In this document: positions 26,575 through 45,964 of the stretch, one piece after another
How positions within the stretch are numbered: the stretch's first letter is position 1
Layout of the letters: each line of letters opens with the position of its first letter
NCBI GenBank assembly: GCA_016839555.1
Contig: JAEOUA010000001.1
Coordinates: 128,001-192,000, forward strand
Direction of reading: 5' to 3'
From: Promethearchaeota archaeon
GTDB taxonomy: Archaea; Asgardarchaeota; Lokiarchaeia; Sigyniarchaeales; SOKP01
DNA length: 64,000 nucleotides
The notes under the pieces: generated by a model
The model's input: the letters and a program-made list of their open reading frames with translations, nothing else
Told to the model about the DNA's origin: nothing
The model's database searches: none
Made by a program: the position numbers and the translations under genes

Positions 26575-26649
26575 TGGAGATATAATTTTAATTATTCTTT
26601 TAATGAAAATAGGTGAATTTTATATTAAAAAGAATTGCTTATTATATTT

Positions 26650-28212
26650 ATGGAACGATTAAATTCCGAAAAAATTTCTTCCGAACAAATGGCAATATTA
26701 GATAATAATGCTGAGTGGCTTGGACTTCCAAAAGGGTATCTTATGGAATGCGCTGGTTATTCTTTTGCGACTGAAATTGTTAAGCGATATGATTTAAATG
26801 AAAATTCAAAAGTTTTAATATTCTGTGGAACGGGAAATAACGGTGGGGATGGTTTTGTTGTTGCTCGCCATTTGTCTTCATTCCATGTTAAATCAAAAGT
26901 TATATTATTAGGAAATCCAATGAAAATCAGAAGTGAGGAAGCAAATTTAAACTGGAATATTATTTCGAATTCTTTAACCTACATGATTGAAACTTCAATT
27001 ATTAATGACTCCACAGATATAGTTAATCTTGGAATATTAATTGACAAAGAACGCCCCGATTATAAATTAATTATTGATGGGTTATTAGGTACAGGTATTA
27101 GAGGAAAAGTCAGAGAACCGGTTGCAACTGCTATAGATTTTATAAATGAAGTGCGAACGCACCAAAAAATTCCCGTAGCGTCTATTGATGTTCCTTCTGG
27201 ACTAGATCCCGATACGGGAGAAGCTGCTGATAAAGCAGTGAAAGCAGATTTGGTAATAACTTTTCATAGAAATAAAAAGGGAATGAAAGTTGATAATGAA
27301 TATATTTCCGAGATTATAGTAAAACCAATTGGCATCCCCACAGAAGCGAAATTATTTCTGGGCAGAGGAGATTTTCTTAACGCATTAAAATATCGAAAGA
27401 AAGATTTTCATAAAGGACAATTTGGGAGGATGCTTGTTATTGGAGGATCTAAAAACTATTCGGGCGCTCCTGCCTTTTCTTCTCTAACAGGAATTAAATT
27501 TGGGCTTGATTTAGTAATAACCTATACTCCTCAAGTAATTGCTGATGTATTAAGATCATATTCTCCAAACATGATTGTACGTTCATATAAAGGAGATTGG
27601 TTAAATATGGATTCATTTGAAGAAATTGCATGGTTAATTGATTGGGCAAATGCGATCCTAATTGGTCCTGGAATGGGAGAAAAACCAGAGACAGAGGAAT
27701 TATTAGTTAATCTCTTAAAAAAGATTAAGGCAGAGCAAAAAAGTTTTGTACTTGATGCTGATGCGCTTAAATTAGTAAAAAATCATTTAAATTTATTAAA
27801 AGGGCAATCATGCATTTTAACTCCTCATGAAGGAGAGTTTAAAATAATGACAGAGATAGATCTTCCCCCATATGAGCAGATCAAAAAAAGAGGAAATAAA
27901 ATTTCTGAAATTGCAAAAGATTTAGAATTAACACTTTTAGTGAAAGGTCCTTATGATTATATAACCAATGGAACGATTCTAAAAATAAATAGAACCGGAT
28001 GTCCTGAAATGGCAGTAGGAGGAACAGGTGATGTTCTAGCTGGGTTGTGTAGTGCCTTTTTAGCTACGGAAAATTCTCCATATTTGTCTGCTTGTTCCGC
28101 AGCCTTTCTAAATGGTTATCTTGGAGAATATTGTAAGGAAAAAATAGGACCTAGATTCAATGCATTAGACATGGTTTATAATCTTAATGATGCAATTCTA
28201 AAGCTAAGATAA
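26650..28212 (+). CDS. nnr: Bifunctional NAD(P)H-hydrate epimerase/dehydratase
   Basis: LMECAG, GTGNNGGDG, SIDVPSG, HKGQFG, YSGAP, LDADAL, TPHEGEF, GGTGDVLAG. ATG at 26650 is preferred over TTG at 26635. Confidence 0.95.
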   Translation: MERLNSEKISSEQMAILDNNAEWLGLPKGYLMECAGYSFATEIVKRYDLNENSKVLIFCGTGNNGGDGFVVARHLSSFHVKSKVILLGNPMKIRSEEANLNWNIISNSLTYMIETSIINDSTDIVNLGILIDKERPDYKLIIDGLLGTGIRGKVREPVATAIDFINEVRTHQKIPVASIDVPSGLDPDTGEAADKAVKADLVITFHRNKKGMKVDNEYISEIIVKPIGIPTEAKLFLGRGDFLNALKYRKKDFHKGQFGRMLVIGGSKNYSGAPAFSSLTGIKFGLDLVITYTPQVIADVLRSYSPNMIVRSYKGDWLNMDSFEEIAWLIDWANAILIGPGMGEKPETEELLVNLLKKIKAEQKSFVLDADALKLVKNHLNLLKGQSCILTPHEGEFKIMTEIDLPPYEQIKKRGNKISEIAKDLELTLLVKGPYDYITNGTILKINRTGCPEMAVGGTGDVLAGLCSAFLATENSPYLSACSAAFLNGYLGEYCKEKIGPRFNALDMVYNLNDAILKLR

Positions 28213-28378
28213 TTTTTCTTTTTACTACATTTTTAATCTAAGAGTATATTATTGATTTAAGTATTAAGGATACTTTTTTATATTAGAAGTCTATTATTTA
28301 TTTATTAGAGTTTTTATAATTTTATCATTTTAAAATAGAATATATTAATATTAAGTATTAAGAATAAAATTCAAGAAA

Positions 28379-29176
28379 ATGCAGGTATTTAAGATAAATG
28401 ACGATGGAACAACCACAGAACTAAAATCTAAAGGTCCAGTAAAAGATATTCTAGAAGAATCAGAATGTTATGTGCTTGTTGCAGACGGAATAAAAAAAGT
28501 ATATCTCTGGAAAGGACAGCAAAGTAGCGTTCGAAAAAAATTCATTGGTGCAAAAAGATCTCAGGAAATACGAGGACAAGTTGGCATGCATTACGCAGTC
28601 ACACCATTAGATCAAGGGGATGAGGATCTTGAATTTATTAAGCTTATTGGAGGCAAAACTACCGAAGGAATAGCTAAGGGTATTGATGAAAGCGACTTGG
28701 ATGAAAGGGCTACTGCTCCTATATCGAAATCTTCCTCTCCGCCAAGGATTAGCAGCTCCGGCGGAAATCAAGGACCTTTATACAGAGGAGCAGGATCTAT
28801 GCAAACCTTCACTGCAGATCAAACACAAATAGATTTTGAGAAAATTATGGAAAAATTAGACGAATCTGAATTGCCTCCTGGATTTGAAAGAGAATTAATT
28901 ATCATAGGCAACCATGCATATTCCGTAGTTGAAAAGGTCCAAACATTTTTAGGCAAAAAGCAAGTGGAAAAAGTGATGGAAAAAGTAGGAACTATCCCAG
29001 AGGGAATATTTTTTGCAAAGGATTATACACCAAGAATTTTCTCTGAAAATGGAAAAATAATGGCAATTGAATTTTTAAAACAAGTAGGGGGCGGTGCTAA
29101 TCCTTCGAAACAAATAAATAGAAAAAAAACGCTTGATGATCAAATAAAAAGCCAACTCATCAAGAAAAAGAAATAA
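28379..29176 (+). CDS. Single gelsolin-domain protein with a second C-terminal domain (Asgard 1DGelX-like)
   Basis: ECYVLV...KVYLWKGQQSSVRKKFIGAK...DQGDED.EF gelsolin signature, then a Ser/Pro linker and a second globular domain. Confidence 0.85.
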   Translation: MQVFKINDDGTTTELKSKGPVKDILEESECYVLVADGIKKVYLWKGQQSSVRKKFIGAKRSQEIRGQVGMHYAVTPLDQGDEDLEFIKLIGGKTTEGIAKGIDESDLDERATAPISKSSSPPRISSSGGNQGPLYRGAGSMQTFTADQTQIDFEKIMEKLDESELPPGFERELIIIGNHAYSVVEKVQTFLGKKQVEKVMEKVGTIPEGIFFAKDYTPRIFSENGKIMAIEFLKQVGGGANPSKQINRKKTLDDQIKSQLIKKKK

Positions 29177-29195
29177 ATGATCTGTGAGGTTCATT

Positions 29196-29585
29196 ATGTC
29201 TTTAACACCTGAAGAAGCAGAAGGCTTATCGAAGTTTTTAGGGAGTATCACAGAGCATTCTGAATTAGAGGCATTAGCATTAATTACTCGTGAGGGGTTG
29301 AGATTAGCTTTTTCTTCTGTACCTGGATATAATATTGATCCCGATTTATTTTCAAGCTTAAGTGCAGTGGTAGTCCAGTCGAGCACTGATGCCATTTCTA
29401 CTTTAGGTTATCATGACATGCTTGAAACCATTATACGCGGTGAAAATGCTTTCATTATCTTGAGTGATGCCGGAAGATTTTTATTAATGGGAGCTAGCCG
29501 CAAAATAGAAGACCTCGGGAAAATCGTATCAGTATTTCGCTATTATTCCGGTGAGATTCGTAAAAGATATCCTAAAATCGAATAA
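29196..29585 (+). CDS. Roadblock/LC7 (MglB-like) protein
   Basis: ALALITREGLRLA, DLFSSLSA, ETIIRGENAFIIL, LGKI. ATG at 29196 follows GTGAGG. Confidence 0.85.
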   Translation: MSLTPEEAEGLSKFLGSITEHSELEALALITREGLRLAFSSVPGYNIDPDLFSSLSAVVVQSSTDAISTLGYHDMLETIIRGENAFIILSDAGRFLLMGASRKIEDLGKIVSVFRYYSGEIRKRYPKIE

Positions 29586-29824
29586 GCTCTAAAAATTACT
29601 CATATTTATCTAATTCTTAGAATATTATAATATTTTTTATTTAACTTCATCATTTTGCTTTATAAATAATATAGATCTGAGTTTCTTAATAAAATTCAAG
29701 AGAAATATAGAGCATAAATTTTTATCATCTTAAGCTTTTCATATATTCTCTTATGGAAGAGATTTATATTTACGTACTTCATTAATATTTATAACAGATA
29801 ATTATTAATCATTATTGATAATCA

Positions 29825-30226
29825 ATGAAAGATGTGAGGATTGTTACATTTGATAATCGAGGACGTTTAGTGGTACCTAAAATAATACGAAAAAGCCTTG
29901 GATTAACAGAAGATACCCAATTAATGATGGTTGCCGATTCAGAAAGTAAAGAAATTCGGATCACTCCCGTAGCATTTGATTCAAGACAAAAACCCATAAA
30001 ATTAAAAATTAAAATTCAGGATGCACCAGGGAGCTTAGCAAAAATTGCTTCCACGTTCGGAAAATTAGGGATATCTTTAATGTATGGTGAATCTGCTGTG
30101 TTGGAGAAAGATAAAACAGCTATATGGACCGTTATCAGCCCTACTCCAAATATTTCTTTAGAGGAACTTAAAGAAAAGTTGATGAAAGAAGGAGGGGCGA
30201 TTGATATAGAAATAATATCACTTTAA
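29825..30226 (+). CDS. AbrB/MazE-type DNA-binding domain fused to ACT domain
   Basis: DNRGRLVVPKIIRKSLGL (AbrB) followed by IQDAPGSLAKIASTFGKLGISL (ACT). Confidence 0.88.
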   Translation: MKDVRIVTFDNRGRLVVPKIIRKSLGLTEDTQLMMVADSESKEIRITPVAFDSRQKPIKLKIKIQDAPGSLAKIASTFGKLGISLMYGESAVLEKDKTAIWTVISPTPNISLEELKEKLMKEGGAIDIEIISL

Positions 30227-30308
30227 TTAATAAGAATATTAGATAAACAAATTTATAAGAAGTTTTCTTTTTAATTATAATAATAATTTATATATTTTGT
30301 TGAGAATT

Positions 30309-30992
30309 ATGCCAAAAAAGAAAGAACAAAAAGAAGAGAGGGAATATTCATTAGAGGAAGCATTAAAATCCTCTCAAAAAACGGGAAGTGACTTACAGAA
30401 TTTTTTAAGTGCTTTATCTAAAGGAAAAGGATTTTATCAAGGAATTCAAAAACCAGAAGAAAAAAAAGAGCAAGAAAAAACAGATCCTCAGTTATCATAT
30501 GATGGAGAACCTTCTAAAAAGGCAGCAGAGGATTATATTATAGAGGATATTTCTATTTCAGAAAAAAAAACTAAAAGTGTTAAAAAGGAAGTAGATATTT
30601 CAAAAGAGGCAAAAGAGACAAAAAAAGATGAGGAATTACAAAAAATATCTATTTACAAGAAATTAAATGAATTTTTCCAGCAAGTCTTTGAAAATTATGA
30701 GATAAGATATAATAGATGGGAAGATTCTATAAATGCTTTAGTTTCTGTGTTACGAAAAATGAGAAAAGTCACCAAAGATAATACTCAACAATTAGTATCT
30801 GGTATTAAAAATATCTATGGGGAGATTAAAACAAATTTAGAGCAATTTAAAATAAAGCGGGATGAAATGGAGAAGGTTTCCGGTGTAAATATTGAAGAAA
30901 TGTCGAGAGAGTTCAAAAAATTGATTGGATTAATGAGCATCCAATTAAAGGAATATCAATTACGCAAATTAACAGATGAATTATTTTATTAG
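30309..30992 (+). CDS. Hypothetical protein: charged disordered N-half, helical/coiled-coil C-half
   Basis: K/E-rich sequence. ATG at 30309 lies within the ORF 30297..30992. Confidence 0.75.
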   Translation: MPKKKEQKEEREYSLEEALKSSQKTGSDLQNFLSALSKGKGFYQGIQKPEEKKEQEKTDPQLSYDGEPSKKAAEDYIIEDISISEKKTKSVKKEVDISKEAKETKKDEELQKISIYKKLNEFFQQVFENYEIRYNRWEDSINALVSVLRKMRKVTKDNTQQLVSGIKNIYGEIKTNLEQFKIKRDEMEKVSGVNIEEMSREFKKLIGLMSIQLKEYQLRKLTDELFY

Positions 30993-31076
30993 CTTTTATT
31001 CTACATTTCATTATATTAATATCTTAATTATATTTATTATTTCATTTCGTTTTTATATAACTATTATATATTAAAA

Positions 31077-32216
31077 ATGTCCTATGGAACTTCTAAATAT
31101 AGTAGAGCGCTTATTTTAGATATCGGAAGCAGTAATTTTCGAATGGGATGGGCGGGCTCAGATGACCCTGAAATTATAGAGTCTTTTATCTATGCTCGGA
31201 CTACAAATTTTCAATTTCAATCGGAATTTATTGATGGCTTTAAAGAAATTTTTTCTAATAAAATAGAGAATGATTATCTATTCGGAAGCGAAGCTTTAAG
31301 TTATCAAGGGATTTTAAAGCTAGAAGATCTTAACAGAGAAGAGAATCCAAATATTTTTATTAAATATTTTCTTCATCAATATCAGAAGCTAAACATTCCT
31401 TCTGAATTCCGATTTAAACAACATATAATTTTAATCGATCCATTTTTAATGAGTGATTTAGAAAAAGACAAATATAAAAAAATATTTTTTGAGCGTTTAA
31501 AATTTCCTTCATTATTATTTCTTCCTTCTGATATGGCAATACTCACGACGTTAAATAAAGTCGATGGAGTTATTGTCAATATAGGTGCAAAAAATACTTA
31601 TATATCTTCAGTTTATCATGGATTTACCGATTCAATGGCAAAAGATAGTGTTCCTATTGGTGGTCGAGAATTAACTAACTATTTTTTAAATATGATTTTG
31701 ACGGGGAAAGGAGCTAATAAAAATTTCTTTTTTGATTTTTGGATGGCTAAAAAAATAAAAGAAGAAATGGCATTATGTGTTTTACATCCAAAACAAGAAA
31801 GAAATAAAATTCAAGAAGATTTTATTGAATACGATAAAATAATACATTTACCAAATAAATATAGTTTTAAAATTAATTTTGAAAGGTTTATGTTAGTTGA
31901 ACCTCTATTTAACCCCCAATTAATCCATATTGACCATAGAAATATTATTGAAAGTATTGTAAAGACCGTTAAATTTTGGGAAAGAGAACAGAGACCTGAA
32001 TTATTATCAAACATTATTATATCAGGGGGAAGTAGTCAAATTCCTGGATTGAAAAAAAGGATAGAATTTGAATTAAAAAAACATTTTGCAGACAAATTGG
32101 AACCCGTGATAAAAGTAATTTCTCCTCAGAGTCGTGAGAATATGGCTTGGATTGGCGCTTCAATCTTATCTTCTCAAGGAAAATTAAAAGAAGGGCTCAA
32201 AAATCCTGATTTATAA
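31077..32216 (+). CDS. Divergent actin-family (actin-related) protein
   Basis: LILDIGSSNFRMGWAGSDDP, IGGRELTNY, IKEEMALC, ERFMLVEPLFNP, NIIISGGSSQIPGLKKRI, AWIGASILS match eukaryote-type actin motifs. Confidence 0.93.
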   Translation: MSYGTSKYSRALILDIGSSNFRMGWAGSDDPEIIESFIYARTTNFQFQSEFIDGFKEIFSNKIENDYLFGSEALSYQGILKLEDLNREENPNIFIKYFLHQYQKLNIPSEFRFKQHIILIDPFLMSDLEKDKYKKIFFERLKFPSLLFLPSDMAILTTLNKVDGVIVNIGAKNTYISSVYHGFTDSMAKDSVPIGGRELTNYFLNMILTGKGANKNFFFDFWMAKKIKEEMALCVLHPKQERNKIQEDFIEYDKIIHLPNKYSFKINFERFMLVEPLFNPQLIHIDHRNIIESIVKTVKFWEREQRPELLSNIIISGGSSQIPGLKKRIEFELKKHFADKLEPVIKVISPQSRENMAWIGASILSSQGKLKEGLKNPDL

Positions 32217-32292
32217 TAAAATATACTGATCTCTATATTTTGATAATTAATTACAAATTTGAAAGCATAATAAAAATAAAGGAAAAAAAAAA

Positions 32293-34866
32293 ATGTTGAG
32301 AAGCTTTAACCGTGAAGAAAGTTTCTTAAGCGATTTTCAAGAGCGATATCAGCAAGGAAAAGAATTACTTTCTCAAGGAGATCATCATTGGGCAACTCGC
32401 TTAATTGTTGACCTTTTTTTTCGTATAGAAAGTGAAGTTTGGATTTCCACTCAAAAAAAGCAACAATTAATTCTAAAATTATCAAAGCTCTGGATAAATT
32501 ATATTAATTCTCTTAAAATTAATGGAGAAATTACTGATCTAATTAAATATATTGATGCATATGATAGACTTTTTTCATTTCTTATTCAGATAGAAAATTA
32601 TAATATGTTTGAGATTTCTATTAACGAATTATTAAGAGTACTTGTGAAAATGGATGATTTACCAATCTCAAAAATCTCAAAATTTATTAACTCTATTTCT
32701 GTAAAATTTATCGAACAAGAAAACTATATTGAATTAATTGAAATACAATTTTTGTTAATTTTTCTTCAAGATTCAATTGTTCATGTAATATATTTTCATG
32801 AAATAATGGATTATTTATCTCAAATAATGAAAAAAATTGAACCATCCAAAAGAACACTATTTTTATATATGATCTTAGAAAATGTGAATATTAAATTTGA
32901 TCTTAGAGTGGATATTAAAGATTTTGTAGAAAATATAGGTAAAAAAGTAATCCATTTGGTCTTCCCTCAATTAAAAGAATATTTTAGTGTTCTCAATACA
33001 ATTGTCATAAACGAGCGAACATTTAATTCTATTAAAGATGATTTAATCAATTTATTTTCTTATTTAAATAATATTGGTGAATCTTCTTGGACAATAGTTA
33101 TTATTAGAAATCTTTTCTTTTATATTAATCAATTTGAATCATTTGAGGCTGCAATAGAACAAATTCATCAATTCATTGAATTTTCAATTGATAGAAGTCG
33201 GTTAAATGTTGTTTACACCACCTATGATTATCTAGAATCCATTTTATTGACGCAATCAAAGGAGCAATATCATAATAAATTAATTGAATTATGGGCTGAT
33301 GCTTGTAATAATTTTGCTAATATGAAACAAAAAGATTTTTTGTTGTTGGCTATTGAAAGATTGGTTGAATATCTACAAATTCCTGAAAATAAATCAAATA
33401 TATTCCATTACTTACATTCTTGTAATTATTTATGGAAATTTAGATCAATTTTCTTCTCCTTTAAAGAACAAGATTTTTGGAGGATGATTTTTTATAGAGC
33501 GCTTTACCAAGAAGGTAGTATAAATCTTGCCAAAAAAATCATTCCTTTTTTAAATAAGAATCTCCAAGCCTTCGTGCAAGATTGTGAATCCTTATATAAT
33601 AAAGCTCTTGCAGTAAAAAATGAGATCTATACTCTCGAAGAGAAGAAAGATTATTATCTTCAACAAAAAAACCATCATATTGTAAATATGGTTATCAAAA
33701 TTAATTCCATTGGTGAATTCTCATATCGGATTTATTATTCCGATGAAAATATATTAGAAAGCACCTTTAGAAAAGAACATTGGAATGATACATATATTGT
33801 CAAAATATATAATGATCTATTTTTTAATAACGATGGAAAAAGCTATAATTTTAATTTAAAGGAATTTGGAAAAATATTATATCTTTTACTTCCAAAAGAA
33901 ATTCGAGATTATTTTTCTCAATTTAGAACTCAAGTTCTAAGACCTCAAATTTATTTTGTTTTTGATAAAATGACTATTCCCTTTGAATTTATTTATAAAG
34001 AAGGATTTTTTTTATTTGCCTATTCTATCGGGTATAATATAGGTGCCCCCCTCATTATGGGAGCAAAATTCTTAATAGAAAAAGAACATTCTCAAAAAAT
34101 TACAACAGATCATGGATCAGAAGCATTATTAATAGATTCAATTAACGCTTTAGCTCCAAAACATTGGCAGGAAGATGAAAATAGAAAGAAATTATTATAT
34201 GAATTTCCATCAGGAGCCAATGAATTAAACTATATTAAAGAACTATTTGATAATAGACCTGAAATTCAGAATTTAAAAGTATTATTAGGTTCTGAAAGTA
34301 CGAAAGGAACAATTTTAGAAGAAATATCTCAAGGTAATTACCATATAATCTATTTTGTAGGAAATATAATTTTTTCAGAATCTCATCCAAGTTATAGTTA
34401 TTTTATCACAAATGATGAATCTATCCTGAAATTTATAGATCTATTTAATGCGTTGGAAACTCAAGAGAAAAAAGTAAAGCCAATTTTATTCTTCGATACC
34501 CAAATGTTTGATAGAAAAGGAAATAGATTAAAAGAAGCATTAGGATTTTTCTCTGAGATTATTTCAGAATTAAATTTTAATAATGTTAAGGGAGTTATTT
34601 GTAGAAACTATACCGATTTTAATATAGATACCAAAAAAATAATTTCAGAGTTTTTTAACAATCTTCTTGAAAAAAACAGCTTAGGTATTTCTTTGCTTAA
34701 AGCTCGTGAAACTCTTCTACCGAAAATACCAAAACTAATTAAGAAGCAATTGGATGGAGAAAATCCCGTAGATCCAGACATTGATAAAAGTAAACATGTT
34801 AATATTGAGAATAGTCAAAAGTTTTTGAGTTTTCTATTATTTGGTGAGCCATGGAATAAAATATAG
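32293..34866 (+). CDS. Large helical-repeat protein with C-terminal CHAT (caspase/HetF)-like domain lacking the catalytic His/Cys
   Basis: LKEFGKILYLLLP, IPFEFI, ANELNYI, TKGTIL..I...YHIIYFVGN, LFFDTQ, FF..L....SLGISLLKAR and FLLFGEP follow the CHAT motif order. Confidence 0.75.
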   Translation: MLRSFNREESFLSDFQERYQQGKELLSQGDHHWATRLIVDLFFRIESEVWISTQKKQQLILKLSKLWINYINSLKINGEITDLIKYIDAYDRLFSFLIQIENYNMFEISINELLRVLVKMDDLPISKISKFINSISVKFIEQENYIELIEIQFLLIFLQDSIVHVIYFHEIMDYLSQIMKKIEPSKRTLFLYMILENVNIKFDLRVDIKDFVENIGKKVIHLVFPQLKEYFSVLNTIVINERTFNSIKDDLINLFSYLNNIGESSWTIVIIRNLFFYINQFESFEAAIEQIHQFIEFSIDRSRLNVVYTTYDYLESILLTQSKEQYHNKLIELWADACNNFANMKQKDFLLLAIERLVEYLQIPENKSNIFHYLHSCNYLWKFRSIFFSFKEQDFWRMIFYRALYQEGSINLAKKIIPFLNKNLQAFVQDCESLYNKALAVKNEIYTLEEKKDYYLQQKNHHIVNMVIKINSIGEFSYRIYYSDENILESTFRKEHWNDTYIVKIYNDLFFNNDGKSYNFNLKEFGKILYLLLPKEIRDYFSQFRTQVLRPQIYFVFDKMTIPFEFIYKEGFFLFAYSIGYNIGAPLIMGAKFLIEKEHSQKITTDHGSEALLIDSINALAPKHWQEDENRKKLLYEFPSGANELNYIKELFDNRPEIQNLKVLLGSESTKGTILEEISQGNYHIIYFVGNIIFSESHPSYSYFITNDESILKFIDLFNALETQEKKVKPILFFDTQMFDRKGNRLKEALGFFSEIISELNFNNVKGVICRNYTDFNIDTKKIISEFFNNLLEKNSLGISLLKARETLLPKIPKLIKKQLDGENPVDPDIDKSKHVNIENSQKFLSFLLFGEPWNKI

Positions 34867-34986
34867 CCATATCATTCTAAAGTTTTAATATCATAAACAA
34901 ATATTGTTTATAATTATTAAAAATAACTTTAAATATAATTTATTTATTCTATTAATATAGAATCATAAAAGGAGTAAAGAAAAAAA

Positions 34987-35511
34987 TTGTCTGACAGATT
35001 ATTAGAACTCAGAATCGAAAATCAGAAATTAAAAAATCAAGTTGAACAATTAGAAAATAAAATATTATCGTTGGTAGGAAATATTGAAATTGAAGTATCA
35101 CAAAAAGGTTTATTAAATGAAGAGATATTAATTTTATTTGAAAATACAGAAAAAAATTTAAATATTTTAACGCCTTATATCGATAAATTCTATAATAATG
35201 AGCTAAAAAGATTAAGCCAAAAAGGTATTAATATATTGGTTATTATTCATGATAGAAGTTTAATTCCTAATAAATATAGAATATTTTATGATGAATTAAA
35301 AACAAAATCAAACATTCATATTGTAAATAATCCAAATATAAAATGTCTTGTAATATTTAATGAAAAAAATGGTATTTATTCTGGAGGCGCTCTGGATAAA
35401 GATGTATTAGATAAATCAATTTTAATTGAAACTAAAATAAATGAAGCAACTAAACTCTATAAAATCAAGCAAATCTATAATCTTTTCCTCCCATCATTTA
35501 TGAGAAAATAG
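34987..35511 (+). CDS. Coiled coil plus PLD-like domain lacking the HKD motif
   Basis: EKNLNILTPYID, KGINILVI, NIKCLVIFNEKNGIYSGGAL (in place of HxKxxxxD...GSxN). Confidence 0.7.
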   Translation: MSDRLLELRIENQKLKNQVEQLENKILSLVGNIEIEVSQKGLLNEEILILFENTEKNLNILTPYIDKFYNNELKRLSQKGINILVIIHDRSLIPNKYRIFYDELKTKSNIHIVNNPNIKCLVIFNEKNGIYSGGALDKDVLDKSILIETKINEATKLYKIKQIYNLFLPSFMRK

Positions 35512-35573
35512 GATGAATATTATAGTTTTTTATTATATTTCTTTTCTTTAATAGTTTTTAGTTTTTAAAAAAG

Positions 35574-36065
35574 TTAAAGAATAATTTTATTTTCATATAA
35601 AAAATTAGATATATCATCGGCTACTAATTCTCTAGCAACTTGAATCTCACATTTATTCCAAATTTTTGTTTCTTTAATATTTTCCCATTCTTTCTCACTA
35701 AGATAATCTTCATTAATTTTATGAGTGTTTTTTAAATCATCAAGAATATTATCATTTACCCTAAAAACACTAATTTTATAATAAAGAACAAATCGTCTTC
35801 TACCATTTGGATAATTAATCTCTTGAATGTTTAAATTTAGTTCATCAATTAATCTTGATATTAATAATTGATTGATATTGCTATTATTTCCATTTTGTTG
35901 GAATTGGATAATTATTCTAGATTTATAATAATTTTCATTAGAATCTATGATATTAATAAATATATTGGCATTTCTTCTTAGGTCGTTTATTCTATAATCT
36001 TCATCTTCGCCTGTTTCACGAGCTATTTTTTTTAATGCTAGAATTACAGTGTCAGTTTTCATCAT
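35574..36065 (-). CDS. Hypothetical protein
   Basis: 163-aa ORF downstream of the R-M gene, with no recognised motif. Confidence 0.6.
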   Translation of the reverse strand: MMKTDTVILALKKIARETGEDEDYRINDLRRNANIFINIIDSNENYYKSRIIIQFQQNGNNSNINQLLISRLIDELNLNIQEINYPNGRRRFVLYYKISVFRVNDNILDDLKNTHKINEDYLSEKEWENIKETKIWNKCEIQVARELVADDISNFLYENKIIL

Positions 36066-36268
36066 AAGAATAAGTTATAAAAATTAATTTTAAGATTATA
36101 TCAACTTTATTCTTATTTATATTGAGAGAGAATGTAAAATTAGTAATTTTTTATGAAAATTTCTGATTAATATTAAATAAGCTAAAAGATTTATATTAAA
36201 TCAAAAATCTAGAGACAATAATGAAATAAAATTCTCTAAAATCATAAAATAAAATTAGTGATTCTAAT

Positions 36269-39244
36269 TTATTCCAAAAGATATTCCTTTATTATTTTTA
36301 GCCCTTTAACACCTTTTAAAATCTTAAGTCCAAGTTTTCTTATGTTATCATGTTCCTCCTTAATTAATCTTCGAATTGTAGACATTTTCAATTCTTCTCC
36401 TGAATTAGCTAATTCCTCTATTTTAATTGAACATTGCTTAGCGAACCTTGCTATTTCTTTTTGGTCTTTACTACTAGAAAATTTTGGAATATTAAAATAT
36501 AATGGTCGCTTATGATGATGTCTAGTATCGCTTATGGTTTTAGTACTTTTATAAAGTTTTTTGATATTAAGCATGCCACATAAATAATATGCTTCTTCTT
36601 CAATATCAGTTCCATAATAGTATAAAGTTGAATCTACAAAAATTATACCTTTAGGATCTTCTATAACTGCTGCCATAAGAGATTTTGCATTTGGAAAAAC
36701 AATTTTATATTTTTTTCTTTGCTCTTTTCTTACTTTACCATTTTTACATAATTTATTTCGATAATTTATCCCAATATCATAGAGATTATATTTATTTTCC
36801 TCTCTATATATCTTTTTTATCTTATTCCAATGTTTTCTACTATATGGACCAATTTTTTCTGGTTTATATTCAAGATTTTTATTTAAGGGTAGAAATATAT
36901 CATAAAGTTTTATATAATAAGGGAATAAACCTCTAGACAAGGTTGCCTTAAATAAATTTTCAGTCTCTACTCTTTCTCTGCTGAAATGTTTGTTTTTCCA
37001 AAAACCTTTTGCTTGAGGAGAAATCCAAGGTTCAATAATGGAGATTCTTCCATTCTCAGTTTGATCTAATATTTCTACATACAATAAAGATTTTGGTATC
37101 ATATCTGCTCCTTGAATAAATTCGGAATAATATTCAGAAAGACTAAAAGGAAGTAATTCATCTTTTTGCTCAGGTCTAATTAATTTTTTTATAAGATATT
37201 TTTCTCCTCTTTGAGGTTCAAAATATGCGTAAGGAGTAAGTTCAAATTTTTTTTGTTTTTCCATTATTTGGGCATCAAAATATGTACATTTAGCAGGATA
37301 TTTTTCAAATACATCTCGCCGACGAGCAATTTCAGTAATAAAACTACCAAAAAAGCAACAACAATCTATATTAAATACTAAGTCATTGAACTCAAAAAAT
37401 TCAATATCTTTAAAAATGTCGAATCTTCGGGCTTTTTGATTTTGAGATGAAACTAATAAAGATCGTGGCATTACAAAACCAACTCTTCCTTTTCCATCTC
37501 TTCTTAAATATAAATTCGGTATTTTATACAAAAATATGATTGCTTCTTCAATATTTGTAACATTATGAGCTCCGGGTTTGATATTATATTGTTCAGAAAT
37601 TTTTTTCATATCATTACGTAATTTTATATCTGCATCTTTATATGTAAGCCAAGGAGGATTAGTAATAATTAAGTCCATCTTTTTCTGTAATAATAAGGAT
37701 CTAATACCAACAAGATTATTAAGAATATATAACCAGATATGATCTTTTTCTTGAGCTTTTAATTCGAATAATTCTTCAAAAAATTCTAAAATTGGGTGCC
37801 TAATCTTGGATTGATCACTTAGAAAGGAGTTATCAAAATTAATTGAAATTCTTGCTAAAGCAGCTTCCCAAACATCATCAAAATTATGAAAATCTTCCCA
37901 GACATTATATATTGATCTAACTAGTTTCTGAAAAAGTTCTATGTTTTTCTCAGTTAAAACATCACCAGGTATTCGTAATTCTATTTCATCTCCAAGTAAA
38001 TCAACACAAAAACTATAAAACTTCCCAAGTTGGACATCTTGAGTTGGTGAAAATTGAAGAGGATCGATTGAATTGCATAAAAAAACATTAATAGAAATCT
38101 TTTCAATCCATTTCCGATGGGATTTTAAATATAATAATATGTTTGCTTTAGAAGTAAGAATGGCAATAGGATTAATATCAAATCCAAAAATATTATTTAC
38201 AGCTTCAAACCATTCATTTGGGGGTTTTTTATCTGAAAATGATATATTATCATCGATTTTTTTAAGGATTTCAATAAGAAATGTTCCAGATCCACATGAT
38301 GAGTCTAATACACGCATTCCTAATTTATATTCTTTTTCAACCATTTTTTTACATAATCGTTCAGGAGTATAATATTCTCCTAATCGATGTCTAACACCAG
38401 CAATAATCATTTCTTGATAAATTGCTCTAAAAATGTCGGTAGCTTTAAACTCCATGGTTTTCATTTTGTTAAAAAATTCATCGCATAACCCTTCTACATT
38501 TATTACCCATCTAAAAAAATCATAATGAAATAATGAAATTCCTAATAATTCAAAATAATTTTCCAATCCTTTAAAAGAATCTCTGGAATATTCACCTGGT
38601 TCCATGAATTCTTGATAAAGAATTAATTTCAATAACATGCTCAGATAAGAATGTCTAAAGAATAACTCTTTTCCAACATCTTCATCATGATAAGCTAATG
38701 AAAAGTGTTTTTTCCATTGTTGAAAGCAAACTGTCTTTTCCCCATTTCGTTCTATAAAATGGTTCTCCAAGCGTGAATATGCTAATATATACATAGGAGA
38801 ATTTATTCCAAATAAAATAGCAAATTGTTCAGAATCTATGATCTTTGGACCTAAAACACTTTCAATTAAAGATATTATCGTTTTTTCATTAATATCTCGT
38901 TTATTCTGTATTACTAATTCTTTATTGAAATAATAAATATATTTTTCTGAAATTACTATTAGAAGATTTGGATATTTACCACGAGTGGAAAAATATTCAT
39001 TAATATATTGTGTACCCTTTGTTTTGACCCATTTTTCTAAGTCTTTCTCAGTTATGTTATATTTATAATCAATGATTACATCACCAATTAAACAATCAGG
39101 TCTTCCTTCTAAGACTCTCTCTTGAGCTTGATATTCTAATTCCAATCTATCAAATATACTGTCAAACCAATGCTCTATATCAAATTCTTTCGTTGCTTTG
39201 TTTAATTGGGTTAAATCCATTTCAATGTCTTTAAGTATAATCAT
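36269..39244 (-). CDS. Fused restriction-modification enzyme (Type IIG/IIC-like, N6-adenine MTase)
   Basis: N-terminal RPDCLIGDVIIDYK (PD-(D/E)xK), LGEYYTP, VLDSSCGSGTFL, GFDINP, NPPW, and a C-terminal TRD-like region. Confidence 0.88.
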   Translation of the reverse strand: MIILKDIEMDLTQLNKATKEFDIEHWFDSIFDRLELEYQAQERVLEGRPDCLIGDVIIDYKYNITEKDLEKWVKTKGTQYINEYFSTRGKYPNLLIVISEKYIYYFNKELVIQNKRDINEKTIISLIESVLGPKIIDSEQFAILFGINSPMYILAYSRLENHFIERNGEKTVCFQQWKKHFSLAYHDEDVGKELFFRHSYLSMLLKLILYQEFMEPGEYSRDSFKGLENYFELLGISLFHYDFFRWVINVEGLCDEFFNKMKTMEFKATDIFRAIYQEMIIAGVRHRLGEYYTPERLCKKMVEKEYKLGMRVLDSSCGSGTFLIEILKKIDDNISFSDKKPPNEWFEAVNNIFGFDINPIAILTSKANILLYLKSHRKWIEKISINVFLCNSIDPLQFSPTQDVQLGKFYSFCVDLLGDEIELRIPGDVLTEKNIELFQKLVRSIYNVWEDFHNFDDVWEAALARISINFDNSFLSDQSKIRHPILEFFEELFELKAQEKDHIWLYILNNLVGIRSLLLQKKMDLIITNPPWLTYKDADIKLRNDMKKISEQYNIKPGAHNVTNIEEAIIFLYKIPNLYLRRDGKGRVGFVMPRSLLVSSQNQKARRFDIFKDIEFFEFNDLVFNIDCCCFFGSFITEIARRRDVFEKYPAKCTYFDAQIMEKQKKFELTPYAYFEPQRGEKYLIKKLIRPEQKDELLPFSLSEYYSEFIQGADMIPKSLLYVEILDQTENGRISIIEPWISPQAKGFWKNKHFSRERVETENLFKATLSRGLFPYYIKLYDIFLPLNKNLEYKPEKIGPYSRKHWNKIKKIYREENKYNLYDIGINYRNKLCKNGKVRKEQRKKYKIVFPNAKSLMAAVIEDPKGIIFVDSTLYYYGTDIEEEAYYLCGMLNIKKLYKSTKTISDTRHHHKRPLYFNIPKFSSSKDQKEIARFAKQCSIKIEELANSGEELKMSTIRRLIKEEHDNIRKLGLKILKGVKGLKIIKEYLLE

Positions 39245-39499
39245 ATATATAAAATTGATTTTTAAGCTTAAAATTCTTTTTCTATAAAAAACTGAAAAAA
39301 TATTAGAAACACACTTCTATAAAGTTAATTTTACTAAATTCTTAATGAACAAAAGAAAAAGCAATATTTACTAATAAGATACGATAAATTTTATTGGAAA
39401 GCAAATTTTTAAATTAATATAGTTCTATAGATTTAATATAGAATATCTATTCGATTTAATATAAAAAATTTAATAGGAATTATCATAAGGTTATAACAG

Positions 39500-40105
39500 A
39501 TGCCCAGCCGGCGTGGAGATGGAACACTCGTTTTCAAGATATGTTTTTATGGTCCCAGCCTTGGCGGTAAAACAACTGCCTTAGAGTGGGTTTATAATAA
39601 AGAAGGCCTTGCTAGCGGAGACATGCAGCAAATTGCGGATCCTACTGGAAGGACACTCTTTTTTGACAGGGTTGTGGCTAAGGTAAGCAATGTTGTTTTT
39701 CAAGTTTACACTGTTGCCGGTCAGCGTAGGCATAAATTTCAGAGGCAAACTGTTTTAAAAGGTACAGATGCCATAATTTTTGTGTGGGATAGTTTAATTG
39801 ACCAATGGGAAGAAAATATCTGGTCTTTGAAAGAATTATTACGATTTTATGGGAAAAAACTAATTTCGTCCAAACCAGGGGATCCACCCGAGGTTCCTAT
39901 GGTAGTAATGGCGAATAAGCGCGATTTAGATGATATAATAAAGGTAGATAAAGTTCGAGAAGCTTTAAATACAGCACATCTAGATGATACCTTAGTCTAT
40001 GAGACAATAGCGATCACCGGTGCAAATGTCAAGCGTGCATTTGTCTTTGCATCCCGACAAGCCGTTCTGAACCACTATAAAAAGCTTTCAGGGGAAGTTT
40101 CTTAG
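39500..40105 (+). CDS. MglA-like small GTPase
   Basis: KICFYGPSLGGKTT (G1), GRTLFFD (MglA switch I with Arg), YTVAGQ (G3), NKRD (G4), TIAITG (G5). Confidence 0.92.
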   Translation: MPSRRGDGTLVFKICFYGPSLGGKTTALEWVYNKEGLASGDMQQIADPTGRTLFFDRVVAKVSNVVFQVYTVAGQRRHKFQRQTVLKGTDAIIFVWDSLIDQWEENIWSLKELLRFYGKKLISSKPGDPPEVPMVVMANKRDLDDIIKVDKVREALNTAHLDDTLVYETIAITGANVKRAFVFASRQAVLNHYKKLSGEVS

Positions 40106-42031: not shown

Positions 42032-45000
42032 TTATAATTGTTTAGCACATTTACCAATTCCTGAAACAGAATCATCCTTATATAAATTAATCACTCTCAC
42101 ACCTTTAGCTTTTCTATGAGTTATTCTTACGGATTCTACTGGTACTCTAATAACTTGACCCTTTTCAGTACCAATAATGATGTCCTTTTCCTTGGCAATT
42201 TTTACAGCGATTACAGAGTCATCATCTGCTAAATTTATGTTATAAACACCCTTCGCACCCCTGCCTGTTTTTCTATACTCTTTTACATAAGTTCTTTGAC
42301 CTATTCCATTTTTAGTAATTGTCAAAATAATATCATCATTACTCACCAAAAGAGTATCAACCACAGAGTCTCCGTCTCTTAAATCAGCACCCTTAACGCC
42401 TATAGCAGGTCTACCTAATTCTCTAAGCTCTGATTCATCAAATCTGATCGCATAACCTTTTTTAGTAGCAATAAAAATATCCTGCAATTCATTAGTAAGT
42501 CTTTTTACGCTGACTAAACTATCATCCTTCCTAATTCTTTGTGCTTTTATTCCTGTTTTTCGGACTTTTGAAAATATTTTTAATCGAATCTTTTTTACAA
42601 TTCCATTTTCGGTTACCATTATTAACCGATTATTATTATTAAAATTATTAATAGGTATCATTTCAGATATTTTTTCATTATCCCGAAGTGGAATAATATT
42701 GACAATCGGTTTTCCTTTCGCTATGCGGGTTTGTTGCGGAATTTCAAAACATTTAATTGAATAAACTCTTCCTTTTGAAGTAAAGAAGAGGATATTATCA
42801 TGCGTGGAACATACAAATAAATCATTTATAAAATCCTCCTCTCCTACTTCCATTCCTTTTTTCCCCCGTCCTCCCCGATGCTGAGCCCGATATGATTTCA
42901 CAGATATTCTTTTTACATAATGATTTTTTGTTAATATCACCATAGTGGGTTCTTTTTTAATAAAATCTTTTTTTTGCATATTTCTAATTGGTTCTGAGTC
43001 CTCGATTTGGGTTCTCCTCTCGTCTCCATATGTTTCCATTAATTCTGCCAGTTCTTGTTTAATTATGTTAAGTCTCTTTTCTTTACTTTCCAAAATTTTC
43101 TTAATTTCTTCTATTTGATTTGTTAATGCTTTTTGTTCATCAAATAATTTTTGCTGTTCTAAATTTGTTAATCGAGAGAGCGGCATTTGTAGAATTGCCT
43201 TTACTTGAATTTCTGTAAGATTATAGGCATTCATTAATTTTATTTTCGCATCATTTTTATCTTTTGCATTTTTAATCATTTGAACAATATTATCTATATT
43301 ATTTAATGCAATTATTAGTCCCTTAACTTTATGAAGACGCTTTTTAGCCTTCTTAAGTGCATATTCATTTCTTTTATAGATAATATCAAGTCGATGATTA
43401 ATGTATTCTTCAATTAATTCCTTAAGTGTAAGAATCTTCGGTAATTTTCCATTTTCAATTAACACAAGGTTTTTTATGTTAAAACTGTTAAATAATTGGG
43501 TTCTTTTATATAATTTATTTTCTATTATTTCTGGTTGAGCTTTCTCCTTTAATTCTAAAACAATTCTCATTCCTTTTCTATCGGATTCATCTCGTAAATC
43601 ACTTACATCTTCTATAACTCCTTCTTTTATGAGTTTTGCAATCTTTTTGAGCAAAGAAGATTTATTTAACAAATAGGGAATCTCTGTAATTACTAGTCTT
43701 CTTCTATTATCTTTTTCTTCTAACTCGATTTTGCCTTTAATTTTAATTTTTCCAGATCCACTGCTATATGCATTATGTATTCCTGAAGGATTGGTAATGA
43801 TCCCTCCAGTTGGAAAATCAGGTCCTTTTATAATTTCCATTAGTTCTTCCAAAGAAATATCTGGGTTATCTATTGATGCTATAATTCCTTCACAGACCTC
43901 CGTTATATTATGAGGAGGCATTGAAGTGGACATCCCAACAGCAATTCCCTTAGTTCCATTTATCAAGATATTAGGAATTTTTGATGGTAAATAAATAGGT
44001 TCTTTTAAAGTATTATCAAAATTTGGTTGAAATTCAACAGTCTCGCGATCTATGTCTTCGACTAATTCACTGGCTATTCTAGACATTCGAGCTTCAGTGT
44101 TATGATTGATGAATCCATTCGCTGTAAATGAATGACAATCCGAGTCTACCCGAATTGAATAAACATGATCCTCGGAAAGGTGATTAATTGAATCTATTTC
44201 TTGGAAGAGATAATTATTCTCTATAAGTTCTTCAAGTAATGATACTTCATATGCTTCAATAAATGTTTTGATGTGATTTATCTTCTTCTTAAGAGAATTA
44301 TATCTATCGATATTCTGTTTTTGAAAGTATTCATTAAACCGGTAGTTATATTTACCTTTAAAGTAATCCGCTAAGTAAGGAATAAAATCAGTTTTACTAA
44401 GTCTTGTACCATCTATTTCCCGAAGCTCCTCAAGTTTCTCTGATTTCCTAGATGAAAAGAATCCAATCTCGTCAGCAAACCTTAGTTTTGATTCCATTCC
44501 AAGTATAGTAATCCTATATGTATCATTTCTCGGATCTGGGATGAGATGACTAGTTATGATCCCAAAACAAAGTAATATATATTTCAACTGGTGATGTAAC
44601 TTAATACTTTCTGAAGTGTAATTTAGGTTAGATGATTTTCCTCCATGTCTTTTATCTGTGATTATTTGGATTGATCCATCTCTCTCAAACAAACCCTGTA
44701 AAAAAGAAGCTACAACGGATTTACTTGATCTTAATACCGAAAATGGAATCTCTTTCTCATCTGATTTGACTGGATCGAGCCCGATACTATAGAGAAAATC
44801 AAGAACATCCCTATAGTGTAGAGAAAATTCCTTCCATCCTTCATATTCGGGCCTTTCATACAGAAAGATCCCCGGGAATGAATTTAATAATCCATTCTTC
44901 ACTTTCTCATAATATTCATGATCCTTATTGTTGAAAGAGAGACGTTGCTGAACTGTATCTGATATACTGCCTTCTGCTACGAGAGCTCCAAGAGAAAATG

Positions 45001-45892
45001 CCAATTCTTCGGTGATCTCTGTTGGAAATTCTACCTCACGTCTTTTATCGGAACTCTCCGGGATGTGATGTACTGTACTATAATTTTTTTTTGGGAACAA
45101 TCCTTTTCGATTAAGAATCACAATATCCTCTTTAGAAATTTCTCTTAAAGTCTTCCAAACAGTCATTGGCTTACCATTGGAATCCTTACTCCAACATAGT
45201 ACAGGATGGTTTTCCGATCCCTTAATTGAATAACCTTGTTTGGTGACCACCTGGATGATATTGTGAACTCCAGAATCAAAAAATTTTGTTGCTCTGTTAA
45301 TATTCCCTTTATAAGAAAGAATCTCAATATCTATATCTCCTTCATAACCTTCGGACACGATTGATTGAAGCATATAATTATTATTCATTTCGATATTTTT
45401 AATGTCCTTTTGAATACCAATCTTTTTACTTAAAATTGAGGAGGTCTTATTTCTAACTTTCTCTGAAAGCTTTTTTATTGGGATCAAACCCTCTCCAGTG
45501 AGGATAAGAGTATCACCTGTTACGCAGTACCTCATGGCTGCTGGTGGATCGCCGTCTATAGAGCCAAAATTACCTTGAGGATTGATTAATGAGTATCTCA
45601 TGGAAAAGTCTTGTGCCATACGTACAAGGCTGTTATAAACTGCAGCATCACCGTGAGGGTGATATTTCCCTAAGGTATCTCCCACGATTCTTGCAGACTT
45701 TACATGAGGTCTATTATAAAATTGATTATTATCCGTCATAGACCAAATAATTCTTCGATGAACTGGTTTTAATCCATCTCGCACATCAGGAATAGCTCTC
45801 CCAACAACTACAGACATCGCATAGTCAATGTAGCTTTCTTTCATTTCTCTCTTTAATAAAATTTCCTTAATATTTTCGTTTTCGGTTGTCAA
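42032..45892 (-). CDS. gyrA: DNA gyrase subunit A, intein-containing
   Basis: RAIPDVRDGLKPVHRR, YHPHGD, AAMRY/TEARM, GPDFPTGG, GyrA-box QHRGGRG, C-terminal pinwheel repeats. Confidence 0.97.
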   Translation of the reverse strand: MTTENENIKEILLKREMKESYIDYAMSVVVGRAIPDVRDGLKPVHRRIIWSMTDNNQFYNRPHVKSARIVGDTLGKYHPHGDAAVYNSLVRMAQDFSMRYSLINPQGNFGSIDGDPPAAMRYCVTGDTLILTGEGLIPIKKLSEKVRNKTSSILSKKIGIQKDIKNIEMNNNYMLQSIVSEGYEGDIDIEILSYKGNINRATKFFDSGVHNIIQVVTKQGYSIKGSENHPVLCWSKDSNGKPMTVWKTLREISKEDIVILNRKGLFPKKNYSTVHHIPESSDKRREVEFPTEITEELAFSLGALVAEGSISDTVQQRLSFNNKDHEYYEKVKNGLLNSFPGIFLYERPEYEGWKEFSLHYRDVLDFLYSIGLDPVKSDEKEIPFSVLRSSKSVVASFLQGLFERDGSIQIITDKRHGGKSSNLNYTSESIKLHHQLKYILLCFGIITSHLIPDPRNDTYRITILGMESKLRFADEIGFFSSRKSEKLEELREIDGTRLSKTDFIPYLADYFKGKYNYRFNEYFQKQNIDRYNSLKKKINHIKTFIEAYEVSLLEELIENNYLFQEIDSINHLSEDHVYSIRVDSDCHSFTANGFINHNTEARMSRIASELVEDIDRETVEFQPNFDNTLKEPIYLPSKIPNILINGTKGIAVGMSTSMPPHNITEVCEGIIASIDNPDISLEELMEIIKGPDFPTGGIITNPSGIHNAYSSGSGKIKIKGKIELEEKDNRRRLVITEIPYLLNKSSLLKKIAKLIKEGVIEDVSDLRDESDRKGMRIVLELKEKAQPEIIENKLYKRTQLFNSFNIKNLVLIENGKLPKILTLKELIEEYINHRLDIIYKRNEYALKKAKKRLHKVKGLIIALNNIDNIVQMIKNAKDKNDAKIKLMNAYNLTEIQVKAILQMPLSRLTNLEQQKLFDEQKALTNQIEEIKKILESKEKRLNIIKQELAELMETYGDERRTQIEDSEPIRNMQKKDFIKKEPTMVILTKNHYVKRISVKSYRAQHRGGRGKKGMEVGEEDFINDLFVCSTHDNILFFTSKGRVYSIKCFEIPQQTRIAKGKPIVNIIPLRDNEKISEMIPINNFNNNNRLIMVTENGIVKKIRLKIFSKVRKTGIKAQRIRKDDSLVSVKRLTNELQDIFIATKKGYAIRFDESELRELGRPAIGVKGADLRDGDSVVDTLLVSNDDIILTITKNGIGQRTYVKEYRKTGRGAKGVYNINLADDDSVIAVKIAKEKDIIIGTEKGQVIRVPVESVRITHRKAKGVRVINLYKDDSVSGIGKCAKQL
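44099..45526 (-). mobile_element. Intein (476 aa) with LAGLIDADG-type homing endonuclease, inserted after GyrA Tyr122
   Basis: Y|CVTGDT, block B GSENHPV, LGALVAEG and FLQGLFERDG, VYSIRVDSDCHSFTANGFINHN|T. Confidence 0.95.
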
Positions 45893-45964
45893 AAAAAGAC
45901 CCGTTCTTTTTGAATTTAAGATTTATATTAAAAATAAATATAAGATTATATAATTTCTAACTAG

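Follow-up and report, generated by a model that had tools for sequence, protein, structure and literature searches.

A divergent actin-related protein and a caspase-fold protein lacking its catalytic dyad form an inseparable gene pair within one order of Lokiarchaeia

Actin homologues encoded in gene clusters together with dedicated partners are exemplified by crenactin-arcadin, ParMRC and MamK-MamJ. These actins form polymers, and the proteins that partner them either are small adaptors or bind DNA. Partners of other kinds are held on a scaffold by Csx29 of the type III-E CRISPR 'Craspase' (Cas7-11 and Csx30) and by eukaryotic separase (securin and kleisin); in each of these proteins a helical repeat solenoid is followed by a double caspase-like domain. 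The locus described here lies in a 64,000-nucleotide stretch of Lokiarchaeial DNA (the window), which sits in contig 4 of an AT-rich genome of 3.7 Mb that is 92% complete. It holds the gene of an actin-related protein (ARP), g5, followed by g6, the gene of a large protein that shares the layout of Csx29 and separase and lacks the catalytic His and Cys. Together with the flanking genes g4 and g7 these form a four-gene block, g4-g5-g6-g7, which is set in an 11.7-kb stretch also containing gelsolin, roadblock, AbrB-ACT and MglA-like genes.

The neighbourhood was compared across 20 loci of 20 kb, 52 further loci and 17 targeted loci of related genomes. (Families are referred to by label: f1 is the window's own family, and f2 includes the complete genome of Promethearchaeum syntrophicum.) Wherever either g5 or g6 occurs, both genes stand side by side on one strand with their order unchanged; this was seen in about 27 of 41 relatives, belonging to three families, and in 70 fetched loci. 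The projected gap between them has a median of 57 bp, and gaps of 2 bp or overlaps of 4 bp are seen in several genomes. No g5 ortholog was found in genomes without g6, the best matches there being only at the level of Lokiactin. In one f1 lineage the ARP and ~650 residues of g6 have been deleted jointly, and an intact 205-residue open reading frame (ORF) corresponding to the C-terminal part of g6 lies between g4 and g7. Given this adjacency, joint presence and absence and joint deletion, the genes of the ARP and of the dead TPR-CHAT protein are inseparable and come and go as a single unit.

The g5-g6 pair is nested inside an older pair. Genes g4 and g7 flank it everywhere it occurs, and in five f2 genomes without g5-g6 they stand directly side by side. 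The surroundings (Hef helicase-nuclease, PHP protein, g4, g7 and a 405-residue orphan) are common to these pair-less f2 genomes and to P. syntrophicum, which carries the whole block and whose g6 is DSAG12_01480. Gaps across g3/g4-g7 are short and conserved, with medians of 57-87 bp and an overlap now and then, which would fit a single transcript. Full-length g6 is found in 64 of the 68 sampled genomes of the window's family, in parts of f2 and in f3. It is absent from f4, and outside the order none was found among 301 sampled genomes of the phylum, in which only unrelated CHAT paralogs match. The ORFs of the block are intact at ortholog identities of 23-69%, and the dead dyad of g6 and the dead HKD motif of g7 are conserved throughout. 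The block is vertically inherited within one order, is single-copy, and is independent of gelsolin-X, roadblock and MglA.

The structure model of g6 (pLDDT 84.5) consists of a helical TPR-like solenoid (residues ~1-445), a small beta/alpha middle domain and a caspase-fold CHAT domain. The best structural matches retrieved with this model by Foldseek are the TPR-CHAT protein Csx29 (2e-11) and separase (1e-6). Structural alignment superimposes 293 residues on Csx29 (Z 18.5, root-mean-square deviation 3.8 Å) and 276 residues on the SD+CD domains of separase (Z 17.4, 3.8 Å), and the caspase-like fold is evident from Z scores of 12-18 to Csx29, separase, gingipain, metacaspase and caspases. The active site is missing. 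In an alignment of five g6 orthologs with three active CHAT paralogs of related genomes (Pfam CHAT 1e-22 to 1e-33), the catalytic His position, which is G-H in the active paralogs, reads G-N or G-I in all orthologs; the catalytic Cys position, C in the active paralogs, is Q, K, H or R. The same loss of the dyad extends through a 20-sequence g6 alignment. Two loops, E495/W497 and N618/P622/W625, are invariant and specific to the g6 family.

The g6 protein matches separase in architecture and fold at 9-12% identity and without the active site; over Csx29 and separase together identity is just 9-14%, too low to indicate common descent with separase specifically. It differs from both proteins in that the His and Cys are absent from every ortholog, that CRISPR genes are not among its neighbours and that the partner indicated by synteny is an actin-family protein. 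Neither in this neighbourhood nor at any of 90 related loci was a gene for Cas7-11/gRAMP or Csx30 found, the neighbours of g6 being g5 and g7. In a related Asgard genome, from another family of the class, a single 554-residue protein joins a Ras-family GTPase to a CHAT domain with both His and Cys (L093:1578-3242).

The g5 protein belongs to the actin family (profile against PDB actins, 1e-58) and is one of six actin-family genes of its genome, in which it is 24-28% identical to the Lokiactin-type genes. It is neither a Lokiactin nor a conventional actin: identity is low and the hydrolysis residues are not conserved. The phosphate-1 Asp and the adenine-side glycines are retained. On the other hand, at the positions of actin D154, Q137 and H161 the alignment of g5 with its orthologs shows no conservation; the DSGDG...H of actin reads NIGAK...Y in g5 and N/D-x-G-E/A/Y...Y/R in orthologs, and the position equivalent to Q137 varies between Q, K, M and R. 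The best 60 PDB matches of the g5 profile are all conventional or archaeal actins, with none of a eukaryotic Arp class among them. A further actin-family gene lies ~1.2 kb beyond the end of the window (contig 4, 193254-194201; a 500-residue frame scoring 228 bits to Pfam Actin).

The shared feature of g5 and the actins of crenactin-arcadin, ParMRC and MamK-MamJ is an actin-fold gene kept beside lineage-specific genes for non-enzymatic partners. The difference lies in both members of the pair, since the partner of g5 is an 857-residue dead protease scaffold and the ARP lacks the conserved hydrolysis residues. Non-Lokiactin actin homologues are on record for Lokiarchaeum ossiferum (PMC9834061). 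Like these Asgard ARPs, g5 is an actin-family protein distinct from Lokiactin; in contrast to them, for which that literature assigns neither partner nor function, a conserved gene partner can be named for g5.

In the g4 protein the N-terminal half is disordered; it has a basic start (MAKKKK in most orthologs) and a linker that varies between orthologs and is Pro-rich, with poly-proline runs, in those of f2 and f3. A conserved helical C-terminal domain of ~115 residues follows. It has no match among PDB sequences or in the protein Atlas. A conserved stretch, LLSILRKMRKITKKNT (window 30700-30790, residues ~140-165), has what we take to be the spacing of a WH2-type actin-binding motif; Pfam gives no WH2 match for g4.

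The g7 protein is a coiled coil, starting at residue 2, joined to a PLD-fold domain. Its model matches the PLD-fold proteins NucT (TM 0.59-0.64, E 1.9e-5), Nuc and Zucchini, as well as TrmB/TrmBL2, and its profile reaches PLDc_2 proteins at 8e-11 (these proteins score 7e-18 in Pfam). The HxK(x)4D motif reads N-x-K-x4-F/W-N/S; the His is missing in 19 of 19 orthologs and the Lys is not invariant. A dimerisation helix joined to a PLD-fold domain without catalytic residues is what g7 has in common with TrmB/TrmBL2 and with pseudo-PLD scaffolds such as FAM83. It differs from TrmB/TrmBL2 in lacking the sugar-binding subdomain and the winged-helix DNA-binding domain (there is none ahead of the coiled coil, and Pfam gives no helix-turn-helix match), and in having its own C-terminal tail, LPSFMR, which is invariant among orthologs. 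The contexts of more distant g7-like proteins (P0071, P0074) are unrelated, and the large protein upstream of P0071 is not g6-like (hhalign probability 0.1).

The coordinates of these genes and of their surroundings are collected in Table 1. All eight plus-strand ORFs (g1-g7 and g10) that the original prediction had named are present, with intergenic gaps of 7-239 bp, and the identities it gave them are upheld by Pfam, ortholog profiles and structure models. Its account of three degenerate enzyme folds also stands, the CHAT dyad, the PLD His and the ARP hydrolysis residues being lost in orthologs as well, as does its placing of a restriction-modification block on the opposite strand, with an MglA-type GTPase as the next plus-strand gene. 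Elsewhere in the window (42032-47974, minus strand), the gene of DNA gyrase A (1286 residues), next to that of gyrase B, contains an intein with a LAGLIDADG endonuclease domain.

Table 1. Genes of the ARP block and of the adjoining units (positions in the window)
Feature	Coordinates	Strand	Basis and remarks
NnrD/NnrE (YjeF) NAD(P)HX repair fusion	26635..28212	+	Pfam Carb_kinase 2e-48, YjeF_N 2e-41; outside ARP block
g1, 1DGelX-type gelsolin	28379..29176	+	Profile vs PDB
g2, roadblock/LC7 protein	29184..29585	+	PF03259 (Robl_LC7) 26.4 bits, cut-off 23
g3, AbrB/SpoVT-type DNA-binding domain + ACT domain	29825..30226	+	Pfam, sub-cut-off
g4, orphan adaptor-like protein	30297..30992	+	Ortholog alignment
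g5, divergent actin-related protein (ARP)	31077..32216	+	PF00022 151.4 bits, cut-off 27
g6, TPR-like solenoid + CHAT without His-Cys dyad, 857 aa	32293..34866	+	PF12770 27 bits (cut-off 24), model
g7, coiled coil + PLD-fold domain	34987..35511	+	Model and profile; no Pfam match
Variable slot: 163-aa orphan + 991-aa type IIG restriction-methyltransferase	35574..39244	-	Pfam N6_Mtase, Eco57I; PADLOC REase_MTase_IIG 3e-49
g10, MglA-like small GTPase	39500..40105	+	PDB MglA 1e-25; Pfam Arf/Ras-like GTPase

Taken as a whole, the 11.7-kb stretch is made up of several independent units and does not form a single cytoskeleton locus switched by a GTPase. One such unit is centred on the gelsolin gene. 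Residues 4-96 of g1 match, at the profile level, Lokiarchaeal 2DGel (1.3e-9) and 1-domain gelsolin (4e-7); a low-complexity linker follows, and then a conserved C-terminal domain X (~150-240) without a PDB match. The architecture of one gelsolin domain plus domain X (1DGelX) has been described in Asgard archaea (PMC7444086), and g1 is alike in layout. Each of the 121 genomes sampled from the class has a g1 ortholog. The roadblock protein g2 is 50-94% identical across the order and lies beside g1 even where the ARP block is missing. NnrDE adjoins the gelsolin-X ortholog in families f1, f2, f5 and f33, and the older NnrDE-gelsolinX-roadblock triplet (window 26635-29585; L081-L085, L089-L092) has stayed intact in four or more families of the class, also where the ARP block is lacking; in two genomes the roadblock gene is inverted and still adjacent to gelsolin-X. 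No description of a gelsolin-roadblock link was found in the literature. In one genome of the window's family gelsolin-X lies 90 kb from the ARP block, and in the complete genome of P. syntrophicum gelsolin-X with roadblock lies 316 kb, AbrB-ACT 225 kb and MglA 825 kb from it. Two gelsolin-X paralogs are found in other settings. One, of 316 residues, follows g3-g4-g7 directly and on the same strand in an f2 genus without the ARP pair (L099:5979-6929); the other, at a second locus of the window's genome, is 3 kb from a weak PLD-like match, with opposite-strand lipid/transport genes between the two.

The two domains of g3 score slightly below the Pfam cut-offs (ACT 7e-6, MazE_antitoxin 6e-5), and g3 is probably a small-molecule-responsive regulator. 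It lies upstream of g4 in f1, in f3 and in one f2 genus and is also present in genomes without g4-g7; the block often has AbrB-ACT upstream but can do without it. Most f1 genomes have an insert of 2.5-4.6 kb between g2 and g3, often with a VWA/copine-like gene of 664-724 residues (L033:4202-6196, L055:5115-7289). The 239-bp g2-g3 gap of the window is an exception to this, the VWA/copine-like gene being missing here and in the closest relative. In one relative (L080) a 1476-residue coiled-coil protein with a C-terminal hydrophobic stretch is encoded directly upstream of AbrB-ACT.

The GTPase g10 resembles MglA (1.4e-25 against the PDB) far more closely than any Rab (Rab7, 1.2e-9) and, when aligned with MglA, keeps the switch-I Arg (RTLFFD) and has TVAGQ (TxxGQ in place of DxxGQ). 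It is single-copy and 69-87% identical across the order, including in a family without g4-g7. Its neighbours are a restriction-modification gene and a metallophosphoesterase, and no roadblock gene is adjacent. The g2 and g10 proteins have the roadblock fold and the MglA-type motifs, respectively, of bacterial MglB and MglA; unlike that system, the conserved neighbour of g2 by synteny is a gelsolin and not a GTPase, and the coupling of genes for a GTPase and its GTPase-activating protein (GAP) is not seen: in complete genomes g2 remains beside the gelsolin gene and g10 is hundreds of kb distant. In one relative (L012:15889-19184) a second copy of the first 39 codons of the MglA-like gene (97% identical to the window's protein) lies 2.5 kb upstream of the gene itself. 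A 693-residue orphan ORF on the other strand separates this duplicate from the main copy, which is broken into two ORFs. In-frame stops near the 5' end of the MglA-like gene are seen in several other relatives.

The restriction-modification slot is variable and outside the block. Most f1 members have, immediately after g7 and on the strand of the block, a 730-736-residue Eco57I/MmeI-type methylase without the nuclease part (L033:13385-15595 and equivalents). The full 991-residue type IIG enzyme on the opposite strand (window 36269-39244) is found in this genome and one other, the two being 59% identical to each other. For a restriction-modification-type gene, the methylase-only gene after g7 is unusually stable.

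The reading favoured here is that the block encodes a non-enzymatic protein complex in which g6, a solenoid of the separase/Csx29 type bearing a dead caspase domain, would be the scaffold or clamp for the ARP, and g4 and g7, probably dimeric, would be adaptors whose action does not depend on the pair. ATP binding is probably retained by the ARP; since its conserved hydrolysis residues are lost, it would not be expected to form a polymer but to serve as a nucleotide-dependent switch, a filament seed or a filament cap. Judged by their conservation among orthologs, the LPSFMR tail of g7, the invariant loops of g6 and the helical domain of g4 are candidate binding features. A complex prediction for g6 residues 455-857, g7 and the ARP (the scored partner) gave ipSAE values of 0.01 and 0.12 relative to a mark of 0.32, which speak neither for nor against binding. 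The likeliest cellular role would be local control of the Lokiactin cytoskeleton, which is simply the most natural guess for an actin-family protein. Physical binding, the ATP switch and the cytoskeletal role are what we infer, and with these included the proposal is about evenly poised between right and wrong. Several observations weigh against it. The sole ties to actin filaments are the ARP itself and the one genus with a gelsolin-X paralog after g7. In other families the genes around the block have to do with DNA (Hef helicase-nuclease, PHP, DNA methylase), and g7 resembles the chromatin protein TrmBL2. Moreover, some genera have a functioning g4 and g7 and no ARP pair, so that an obligate complex of all four proteins is not required. 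A bolder form of the proposal, that this is a dedicated archaeal ARP machine (ARP, dead scaffold, g4 and g7) which seeds, caps or anchors Lokiactin filaments, is conceivable though improbable.

Certain of these points lend themselves to another interpretation: the block might be a DNA or chromatin module, with the ARP held on its scaffold in the manner of a nuclear ARP, g7 as a TrmBL2/Nuc-like DNA-binding dimer, g4 as a basic-tailed adaptor and g3 as an AbrB-type regulator. The fold of g7, which is that of the nucleases Nuc, NucT and Zucchini and of archaeal TrmBL2, is consistent with this, as are the MAKKKK N-terminus of g4 and the adjacency of Hef and PHP in f2 and of the conserved methylase-only gene in f1. 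However, g7 has neither the winged helix-turn-helix of TrmB nor the catalytic His. Net charge and isoelectric point of g4 and g7 give no clear DNA-binding signal (the PLD domain of g7 and the C-terminal domain of g4 have median isoelectric points of ~8.2 and 6.6, respectively, neither being strongly basic), and the flanking DNA-related genes vary by family and may be chance neighbours. A DNA or chromatin module is, on this evidence, distinctly unlikely. The original prediction had gone further in another direction, combining all seven genes and MglA into a single GTPase-switched actin-regulatory module in which the roadblock protein would be the GAP of MglA and gelsolin-X would act on the ARP. 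All the families that it named are indeed present, and in much of the window's family synteny runs from gelsolinX-roadblock through the block to MglA. This synteny takes in housekeeping genes as well (NnrDE, DUF169, metallophosphoesterase) and is gone outside the family; the parts are separated by 225-825 kb in P. syntrophicum; in most family members the 2.5-4.6-kb insert sets roadblock apart from g3; gelsolin-X with roadblock, and MglA, are present in all sampled lineages, those without the ARP block included; and in strain MK-D1 GTPase genes are as a rule found outside operons with roadblock genes (PMC10933270). Scattered orthologs in related genomes were what the prediction itself had named as speaking against it, and because those of g1, g2, g3 and g10 are scattered the single-module reading is largely refuted and now very unlikely. 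What survives is a conserved unit around the actin-like gene, g4-g7, which stays together; gelsolin, roadblock and MglA are not members of it, and AbrB-ACT is likewise scattered.

The composition of the block also brings to mind a system of defence or conflict that has decayed or is unconventional: defence effectors are commonly CHAT proteases or PLD nucleases, among solved structures Csx29 (the Craspase protease) and SAVED-CHAT are nearest to g6, and a restriction-modification gene adjoins, the type IIG enzyme lying downstream. Yet both effector folds are dead in every ortholog, PADLOC has no match for g3-g7, no Cas7-11-like or cyclase gene is adjacent, and occurrence in 64 of 68 family genomes, as a single vertically inherited copy, is not patchy. 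Alternatively, g6 might be a pseudo-protease that acts as decoy or regulator of an active CHAT protease, as pseudo-caspases do for caspases, the ARP being incidental. Active CHAT paralogs do exist in some related genomes, but in the window's genome, at its 92% completeness, no CHAT-domain match besides g6 was found, and the strict coupling to the ARP would be left unexplained. With the folds dead, PADLOC blank for g3-g7, inheritance single-copy and vertical and no other CHAT match in this genome, a defence system seems extremely improbable and a protease decoy equally so.

Asgard ARPs, gelsolins, roadblocks and MglA-like GTPases are all on record (PMC9834061, PMC7444086, PMC10933270, PMC13716822). 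Full-text literature searches found no paper on an ARP paired with a CHAT or separase-like protein in Asgard archaea. The present comparison also corrects an over-reading of the locus, in that gelsolin, roadblock and MglA are placed here by family-level synteny and not as one switch. Asgard archaea hold several ARPs beside Lokiactin, to which the literature found gives no function or partner. A strictly co-inherited partner and two adaptor candidates make the ARP question experimentally approachable: the block is present in the cultured P. syntrophicum, and natural variants exist that are without only the ARP pair. If the block does encode a dedicated ARP machine, it would be a prokaryotic counterpart of the ARP-containing complexes of eukaryotes, built on the protease fold that eukaryotes use as separase.

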